From Escherichia coli (GTDB taxonomy: Bacteria > Pseudomonadota > Gammaproteobacteria > Enterobacterales > Enterobacteriaceae), in assembly GCF_046105845.1 (NCBI RefSeq), contig NZ_CP151004.1: 64,000 nucleotides of DNA, one strand, 5' to 3'. Below, piece by piece: positions 8,090 to 8,499 of this stretch. Position 1 is the first letter of the stretch. Every line of letters begins with the position of its first letter. The notes under the pieces were generated by a model. The model was not told the origin of the DNA, ran no database searches, and saw nothing but the letters and a program-made list of their open reading frames with translations. Both the position numbers and the translations under genes were made by a program.

Positions 8090-8197
8090 AAGAGAACATC
8101 CCCTGAGAGTTTAATTTTCGTCAAGATGCGTGGCGGACAATCCCCTGCCAGCGAAACGTTATCTTCCTGCTCCAGGTTTGCGACAAATTGGTGCGTC

Positions 8198-8362
8198 GCA
8201 AAAAAGCAAACGTTTAGCTCCGCGCATACAAAACGGGTGGTAAAAAAAGCAAACGATTATCCGGCGATCATAGCGGCTTTTTCAACCGAAGTTTGCTGCT
8301 TTTTTCTCTTTTATTGTCTTGACGATGAAAAACCAGGCAATTGATGCGCAAACGTTATCGTC
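8198..8362. promoter_or_regulatory. ghxP upstream region with repeated AAAAAAGCAAACG motifs and PurR-box-like sites
   Basis: aaaaaagcaaacgttt (8200-8216), aaaaaaagcaaacgatt (8241-8258), inverted copy gtttgctgcttttttc (8291-8306), gcgcaaacgttatcgt (8346-8361, 14/16 to the PurR consensus as I recall it). Confidence 0.4.
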
Positions 8363-8499
8363 GATGCGCAAGATTGCAGCGTTATCGAGCCGCATACCGT
8401 TCAGGATTGCGATAAAAAATCGTCTGAGATGACAAAAATATTGCGGCTAAAAAGTGTACTTTTACACTGGCGAAGAAACGCCGGTGACATACAATTAAA

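Follow-up and report, generated by a model that had tools for sequence, protein, structure and literature searches.

The 5′ control region of ghxP in Escherichia coli probably contains three operators for PurR, which would repress the gene through boxes arranged around a single promoter; we place the probability of this reading near 0.8. That PurR controls ghxP at all is supported and already published, belongs to textbook-level knowledge of the regulon, and as a finding on its own changes little. What looks new is the layout of three boxes together with an invariant spacing of 99 bp between two of them, and both are modest additions. They bear on the gene in that box 1, the one site that the literature lists, is the farthest from the promoter, and boxes 2 and 3, which are the likeliest to repress, are absent from the searchable literature. 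We infer the individual occupancy of boxes 2 and 3 by PurR, as well as the role of each box. With this arrangement ghxP may be the most heavily operator-loaded of the PurR targets, and a heavy operator load would fit a tight shut-off of this permease, by which toxic purine analogues can enter as well. The invariant 99-bp spacing offers a clean way to test whether action at a distance ever occurs with PurR.

The ghxP locus and the sequences compared

The window referred to throughout is the whole stretch of E. coli DNA that was analysed, 64 kb in length. The repeats at 8195-8390 that drew attention to it belong to the ghxP 5′ control region as it appears on the antisense strand. They lie in the soxR/sraL–ghxP intergenic region of the chromosome, upstream of ghxP on the minus strand, among the following genes.

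6740-8089, minus strand: ghxP (yjcD) coding sequence, the regulated gene, with its ATG at 8089
8502-8642, plus strand: gene for the small RNA sraL/ryjA (Rfam RF01408, 153 bits)
8635-9099, minus strand: soxR

A segment of 701 bases around the repeats matches 5,420 of 5,426 complete E. coli genomes, in which it is annotated with ghxP and soxR. Relative to K-12 MG1655, the window differs at 9 of 552 intergenic positions, 8364, 8393, 8187, 8191 and 8094 among them; the three PurR boxes and both promoter hexamers are free of differences. At the far end of the region sraL/ryjA runs towards soxR, and the two overlap at the soxR 3′ end; a perfect hairpin with 12-bp arms (8611-8641) that is common to the two genes resembles a bidirectional terminator.

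Conservation was assessed in 80 Enterobacteriaceae loci encoding GhxP at 89-100% identity. Two genomes of Erwinia, which is not a member of this family, and a divergent enterobacterium, strain ESL0689, were added to this set, for 83 taxa in all. The ghxP loci on two public contigs, one named 'Bacillota bacterium MAG' (its ghxP is 100% identical to that of E. coli) and the other 'Chryseobacterium sp. 18061', are typical of Enterobacteriaceae, which probably reflects contamination or mis-binning in public assemblies.

PurR-type boxes in the ghxP control region

Table 1 of Cho et al. 2011 (PMC3159470) supplied 27 motifs for a PurR position matrix, with the ghxP motif excluded, and this matrix was run over both strands of the whole window, or about 128,000 positions. 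Published PurR sites score from 12.1 to 24.7 bits on the same matrix, and this validated range serves for comparison. The two highest scores in the window both fell in the ghxP control region. The sequences considered as possible PurR sites are listed here.

8346-8361, minus strand: PurR box 1 (distal), ACGATAACGTTTGCGC in the ghxP sense, 18.3 bits, rank 2
8247-8262, minus strand: PurR box 2 (promoter-proximal), GGATAATCGTTTGCTT, 11.1 bits, rank 7
8204-8219, minus strand: PurR box 3 (downstream), AGCTAAACGTTTGCTT, about 18.8 bits, rank 1
8150-8165, plus strand: weak fourth PurR-like sequence in the ghxP leader, AGCGAAACGTTATCTT, 8.0 bits, rank 32
8291-8305, minus strand: A-rich block directly upstream of the -35 hexamer, AAAAAAGCAGCAAAC in the ghxP sense, originally read as an inverted copy of the repeat
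8363-8387, minus strand: split copy of the repeat, CGATAACG-CTGCAATC-TTGCGCATC in the ghxP sense, matrix scores of -2 or lower

Boxes 1, 2 and 3 are each a 16-bp imperfect palindrome with a central CG and a match to the matrix, as is characteristic of PurR operators, and the inverted and split copies are not. Box 2 is a modest match, the left half of which could be conserved simply as a -10 element; its score rises to 14.1 bits in species that have AGATAAT. The fourth sequence, at 8150-8165, scores below 9 bits in most species and is not kept as a PurR box.

The repeats themselves are real and non-random. The original prediction had described direct copies, an inverted copy and a tandem duplication, plus a site agreeing with the PurR consensus at 14 of 16 positions; the direct copies and the 14/16 site were borne out, whereas the inverted copy and the duplication proved to be other than described. 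On its plus strand the 64-kb window has precisely two copies of AAAAAAGCAAACG, at 8200-8212 and 8243-8255, and an exact direct repeat of 13 nt within the 545-bp intergenic region was reached by 2 of 1000 dinucleotide-preserving shuffles. The hexamer GCAAAC/GTTTGC is found five times between 8140 and 8400 against 0.42 expected, a count reached in none of 2000 shuffles. The two copies of AAAAAAGCAAACG resolve into the right-hand GCAAACG half-sites of boxes 3 and 2, respectively, together with a common A/T-tract. The number and arrangement of the repeats, which had been called unusual for a simple operator, are accounted for in that the direct repeats are the half-sites of two further conserved PurR-type boxes. 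The 14/16 site corresponds to box 1: GCGCAAACGTTATCGT at 8346-8361 is the reverse complement of ACGATAACGTTTGCGC and departs from the published PurR consensus, ACGNAAACGTTTGCNT, at two specified positions.

The supposed inverted copy at 8291-8305, the reverse complement of which is AAAAAAGCAGCAAAC, can be aligned only with a 3-nt insertion, or else at 11 of 13 positions ungapped. It lacks the central CG of a PurR box and was rejected as one after negative matrix scores in all registers; across the species loci this region held no matrix match of at least 9 bits. The split copy at 8363-8387, with scores of -2 or lower and likewise no central CG, was also rejected. As for the tandem duplication, GATGCGCAA is present at 8343 and 8363, and CGTTATCG at 8353 and 8380. 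The part of it that holds up is TTGCGCAT, which recurs 20 bp apart, at 8343 and 8363, and does so outside E. coli as well, whereas the second CGTTATCG is specific to E. coli. The difference at 8364 hits the second copy of GATGCGCAA, so the duplication is less perfect in K-12. Other genera retain only TGTTGC-N4-ATTGCGCAT from the split copy; in most Enterobacteriaceae genera this element (8363-8390) directly adjoins the upstream edge of box 1, and it could bind a partner protein.

Placement of the boxes around the predicted promoter

One candidate promoter can be recognised on the ghxP strand.

8256-8285, minus strand: predicted sigma-70 promoter of ghxP, with -35 TTGAAA (8285-8280), an 18-nt spacer and -10 GATAAT (8261-8256)

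TTGAAA-18-GATAAT is the only promoter-like match on this strand in E. coli, Klebsiella, Salmonella and Erwinia, and both GTTGAAA and GGATAAT are invariant across species. Judged from these hexamers, transcription would start near 8249-8250; a search of genome-wide papers on transcription start sites and transcript boundaries, supplements included, returned no experimental start site for ghxP/yjcD. Relative to the predicted start, box 2, which holds the copy of AAAAAAGCAAACG at 8243-8255, overlaps both the -10 hexamer and the start itself. Box 3, which holds the other copy (8200-8212), is centred about 38 bp downstream, at approximately +38, and the centre of box 1 is about 104 bp upstream of the start and about 264 bp upstream of the ATG.

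Upstream of the -35 hexamer, the A-rich block at 8291-8305 has conserved A positions at about -46 and -56, and is possibly an UP element. A second promoter near box 1 was considered and rejected, the candidate hexamers there being weak and not conserved, and a scan for an intrinsic terminator or attenuator at the T-tracts found none. The T-run of box 2 would supply the first transcribed bases (GCUUUUUUU). It is speculation that such a start resembles those of promoters with UTP-sensitive reiterative transcription.

The placement suggests how repression could operate. PurR, a dimeric purine repressor of the LacI/GalR family that is activated by hypoxanthine or guanine, would act on the three ghxP operators. 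With box 2 lying across the -10 hexamer and the predicted start, PurR bound there would exclude RNA polymerase. Bound at box 3, it would present a second block, to promoter escape or elongation, in the manner of the downstream operators of purR and purB. Box 1 may serve as an auxiliary upstream site, some 104 bp upstream of the start and held at 99 bp from box 2.

Published evidence for PurR control of ghxP

Box 1 is identical, letter for letter, to the motif assigned to the PurR ChIP-chip region ryjA/yjcD by Cho et al. 2011 (PMC3159470), and that region was bound only with adenine present (PMC3159470). After conversion of coordinates, the ChIP region equates to positions 8106-8736 of the window, and hence spans the three boxes without separating them; the motif given for ghxP in the table of Cho et al. 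is box 1 only (PMC3159470). Repression of yjcD by adenine is PurR-dependent, with a 4-fold drop in the presence of the adenine precursor HAP (PMC3809563), and ghxP is a member of the adenine-repressed PurR-1 i-modulon (PMC6892915, PMC8376909). The purine-responsive control by PurR that had been proposed from the 14/16 site is therefore supported by, and known from, earlier work, in which that very site is the published ChIP-chip motif. When the literature was searched in full text with the three box sequences in both orientations, box 1 alone was found, in Cho et al.

Conservation of the boxes and their fixed spacing

The three boxes occur in the same order and orientation in nearly all of the 80 Enterobacteriaceae loci, and each shows the conservation among orthologues that is expected of a PurR operator. 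Of the 83 taxa, 79 have box 1. Box 3 was found about 120 bp before the ATG in 80 of the 81 sequences from Enterobacteriaceae and also in Erwinia, and the GGATAATCGTTTGC portion of box 2 is invariant in 78 distinct sequences, with box 2 also present in Erwinia. At boxes 2 and 3, conservation extends past the 16-bp PurR box into the adjoining A/T-tract. There are exceptions to the three-box pattern. The two Erwinia genomes retain the promoter with boxes 2 and 3 and have no box 1, and strain ESL0689 retains boxes 1 and 2, again 99 bp apart, and has no box 3; Mangrovibacter is without box 2, and Pluralibacter gergoviae is without box 1. As these taxa are missing one box each, no single box is indispensable, and the patterns in Erwinia and ESL0689 mark box 2 as the most widely retained element.

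The distance from box 1 to box 2 is exactly 99 bp in all 79 taxa that have both. The intervening spacer (8263-8345, 83 nt) contains no indels in 76 distinct sequences even though 69 of its 83 columns vary, and its pairwise identity averages 62% with a minimum of 41%. In contrast, the interval between boxes 2 and 3 has 22 different lengths (43 to 206), and that between box 3 and the ATG has 23. Boxes 1 and 2 consequently show the arrangement of a looping pair, that is, two operators held at a constrained distance around a promoter. A small open reading frame behind the indel-free spacer was rejected, since none of the frames stays open from species to species and the sequence shows no 3-nt periodicity. 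Alternatively, the fixed spacing could be due to several weak, overlapping sites that have gone unrecognised.

This constancy invites the model of a higher-order complex of fixed geometry, in which PurR at box 1 would communicate with PurR or RNA polymerase at box 2, either through a DNA loop of the GalR-repressosome type or by way of a partner on the TGTTGC-N4-ATTGCGCAT element adjoining box 1. The distance is kept across a variable spacer while the other distances vary, and neither an open reading frame nor codon periodicity explains it. Loops in vivo have about 11 bp per turn, at which 99 bp would amount to 9.0 turns. At 10.5 bp per turn, however, 99 bp corresponds to 9.4 turns and places the boxes on opposite faces of the helix, and PurR is without a tetramerisation domain. 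PurR formed no tetramers even at high concentration, and a LacI-PurR chimera gave no spacing-dependent looping in vivo (bioRxiv 10.1101/477893); these experiments disfavour looping by PurR, and we regard such a complex as unlikely.

The nearest parallels in layout are the GalR repressosome of galETKM, in which OE and OI are 113 bp apart, and the O1-O3 pair of LacI. In both, as at ghxP, operators roughly 100 bp apart bracket the promoter; their spacing matters, and the proteins are dimers of the LacI/GalR family, as PurR is. GalR dimers, however, associate with one another and need HU, whereas neither tetramerisation nor looping has been seen with PurR, so that the likeness is one of layout only. 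Were the three operators to form a fixed-geometry PurR complex after all, with long-range communication by PurR itself or with a partner bound beside box 1 and with a structured leader that may add control, this would be new behaviour for a protein seen as a simple dimer that does not loop; we think this improbable, and the reading of three operators acting around one promoter remains preferred.

The ghxP mRNA leader

Downstream of the start, box 3 and its flanks would also be transcribed into the ghxP leader, which contains the following hairpin.

8179-8200, minus strand: conserved leader hairpin UGCGAC-loop-GUCGCA, directly after the T-tract of box 3

All six of its pairs have changed on both sides in a compensatory manner, and 95.7% of cells in a set of 65 sequences are paired. 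Its loop is C-rich in most species and could in principle pair with the invariant ribosome-binding region CAGGGGAU. A second stem, between box 3 and 8150-8165, has one covarying position (CG 26, UA 25, UG 11) as well as changes that are not compensated, so that an RNA pairing here is weakly supported. Box 3 and its flanks could thus be constrained in part by the structure of the leader RNA. The E. coli leader taken as a whole folds no better than shuffled sequences (z = -0.09), and an Rfam scan of 7900-8800 at E ≤ 1 returned sraL (8502-8642) only, with no leader family or purine riboswitch. In the E. coli leader CAGGGGAU occurs twice on the minus strand, at 8099-8106, the invariant ribosome-binding region, and at 8141-8148, 42 nt upstream. 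The upstream copy has the sequence CAGUGGAU in most other genera, where it makes up the 5′ arm of a small hairpin (8133-8145) that is conserved.

These structures are relevant to the possibility that box 1 is the only working PurR operator, boxes 2 and 3 being lookalikes of PurR sites that are conserved for other reasons, box 2 for its role as the -10 element and initially transcribed sequence, box 3 for its place in a folded mRNA leader. In favour of this, the -10 hexamer makes up the left half of box 2, a stem between box 3 and 8150-8165 is possible and covaries at one position, box 3 is adjoined by the strongly covarying hairpin, and the published motif table gives box 1 alone. Yet the CGTTTGC half of box 2, which is invariant, falls beyond the -10 hexamer, and the proposed stem of box 3 has 8 non-compensated changes at one pair. 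Moreover, no PurR match in the 64 kb scores higher than box 3 (18.8 bits, out of sample), and box 1 is the one absent from Erwinia, where boxes 2 and 3 are retained. We consider this alternative unlikely as well.

Recognition of AAAAAAGCAAACG by a different regulator, either another LacI-family protein such as RbsR or else CRP or NAC, is very improbable: conservation does reach from boxes 2 and 3 into the A/T-tract, past the 16-bp PurR box, but the repeats score as PurR boxes and ghxP behaves as a member of the PurR regulon. The half-site AGCGAAACG at 8150-8158 resembles the RbsR operator, but its AGCG (8150-8153) is not conserved outside sequences of the E. coli type, and an RbsR-like reading of 8150-8165 was rejected on the lack of conservation of the half-site. 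CRP and NAC sites, raised alongside PurR in the original prediction, did not materialise: positions 8090-8500 contain neither a match to TGTGA-N6-TCACA with at most 3 mismatches of 10 nor an ATA-N9-TAT.

Comparison with other PurR targets

The number of boxes assigned to ghxP under the preferred, three-operator reading was compared with that at 18 other K-12 PurR ChIP regions, each scanned over ±300 bp of its published motif. In 15 of the 18 there was a single box of at least 9 bits, and none had two boxes of at least 15 bits or three of at least 11 bits. The operators of purF, purT, purL and purM follow the same 16-bp imperfect palindrome, ACGNAAACGTTTGCNT, with its central CG, as do those at ghxP. 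Operators of the pur regulon, to which ghxP belongs, also overlap the core promoter, as box 2 is predicted to do, and their occupancy depends on co-repressor. The difference is that these targets mostly have a single box, against boxes of about 18.8, 18.3 and 11.1 bits at ghxP.

A precedent is purR, which has two operators 88 bp apart, the second of them, at 10.9 bits, near the score of ghxP box 2. Repression from sites downstream of the start, as proposed for box 3, occurs both at purR, through its downstream operators, and at purB, where the operator is inside the gene. Both purR sites, however, are downstream of the promoter, whereas ghxP adds a far-upstream site and one that overlaps the predicted promoter. 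The two purR operators reportedly bind non-cooperatively, a result ascribed to Rolfes and Zalkin 1990. By annotation, purR and purA have two PurR sites each and other targets have one (PMC3505978).

Two genes that encode nucleobase transporters, like ghxP, carry a second box on the matrix: xanP, with one of 12.5 bits at 98 bp from its strong box, and adeP, with one of 12.2 bits at 32 bp from its strong box. These second boxes are weak, whereas ghxP has two strong ones. The second box of xanP is inside the coding region (the pair is at 678-693 and 776-791 of the K-12 stretch), and its distance of 98 bp is close to the 99 bp of ghxP and the 88 bp of purR. The paralogue ghxQ, which sits within the ygfK-ghxQ cluster, has no box of its own, and the ghxP architecture is therefore not common to the paralogue.

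The matrix also matched two K-12 sequences that are absent from Table 1 of Cho et al. One, ACGTAAACGGTTGCTT (18.9 bits, 19321-19336 of its K-12 stretch), lies 47 bp before the uacT ATG, and the other, ACGGCAACGATTGCGC (17.6 bits, 23770-23785 of its K-12 stretch), is inside uraA. Among the boxes of transporter genes, those of codB, uacT and xanP, together with boxes 2 and 3 of ghxP at 8242-8248 and 8200-8205, respectively, end in GCTTTT(T), whereas the PurR boxes of biosynthetic genes end in GCGT followed by a base other than T.
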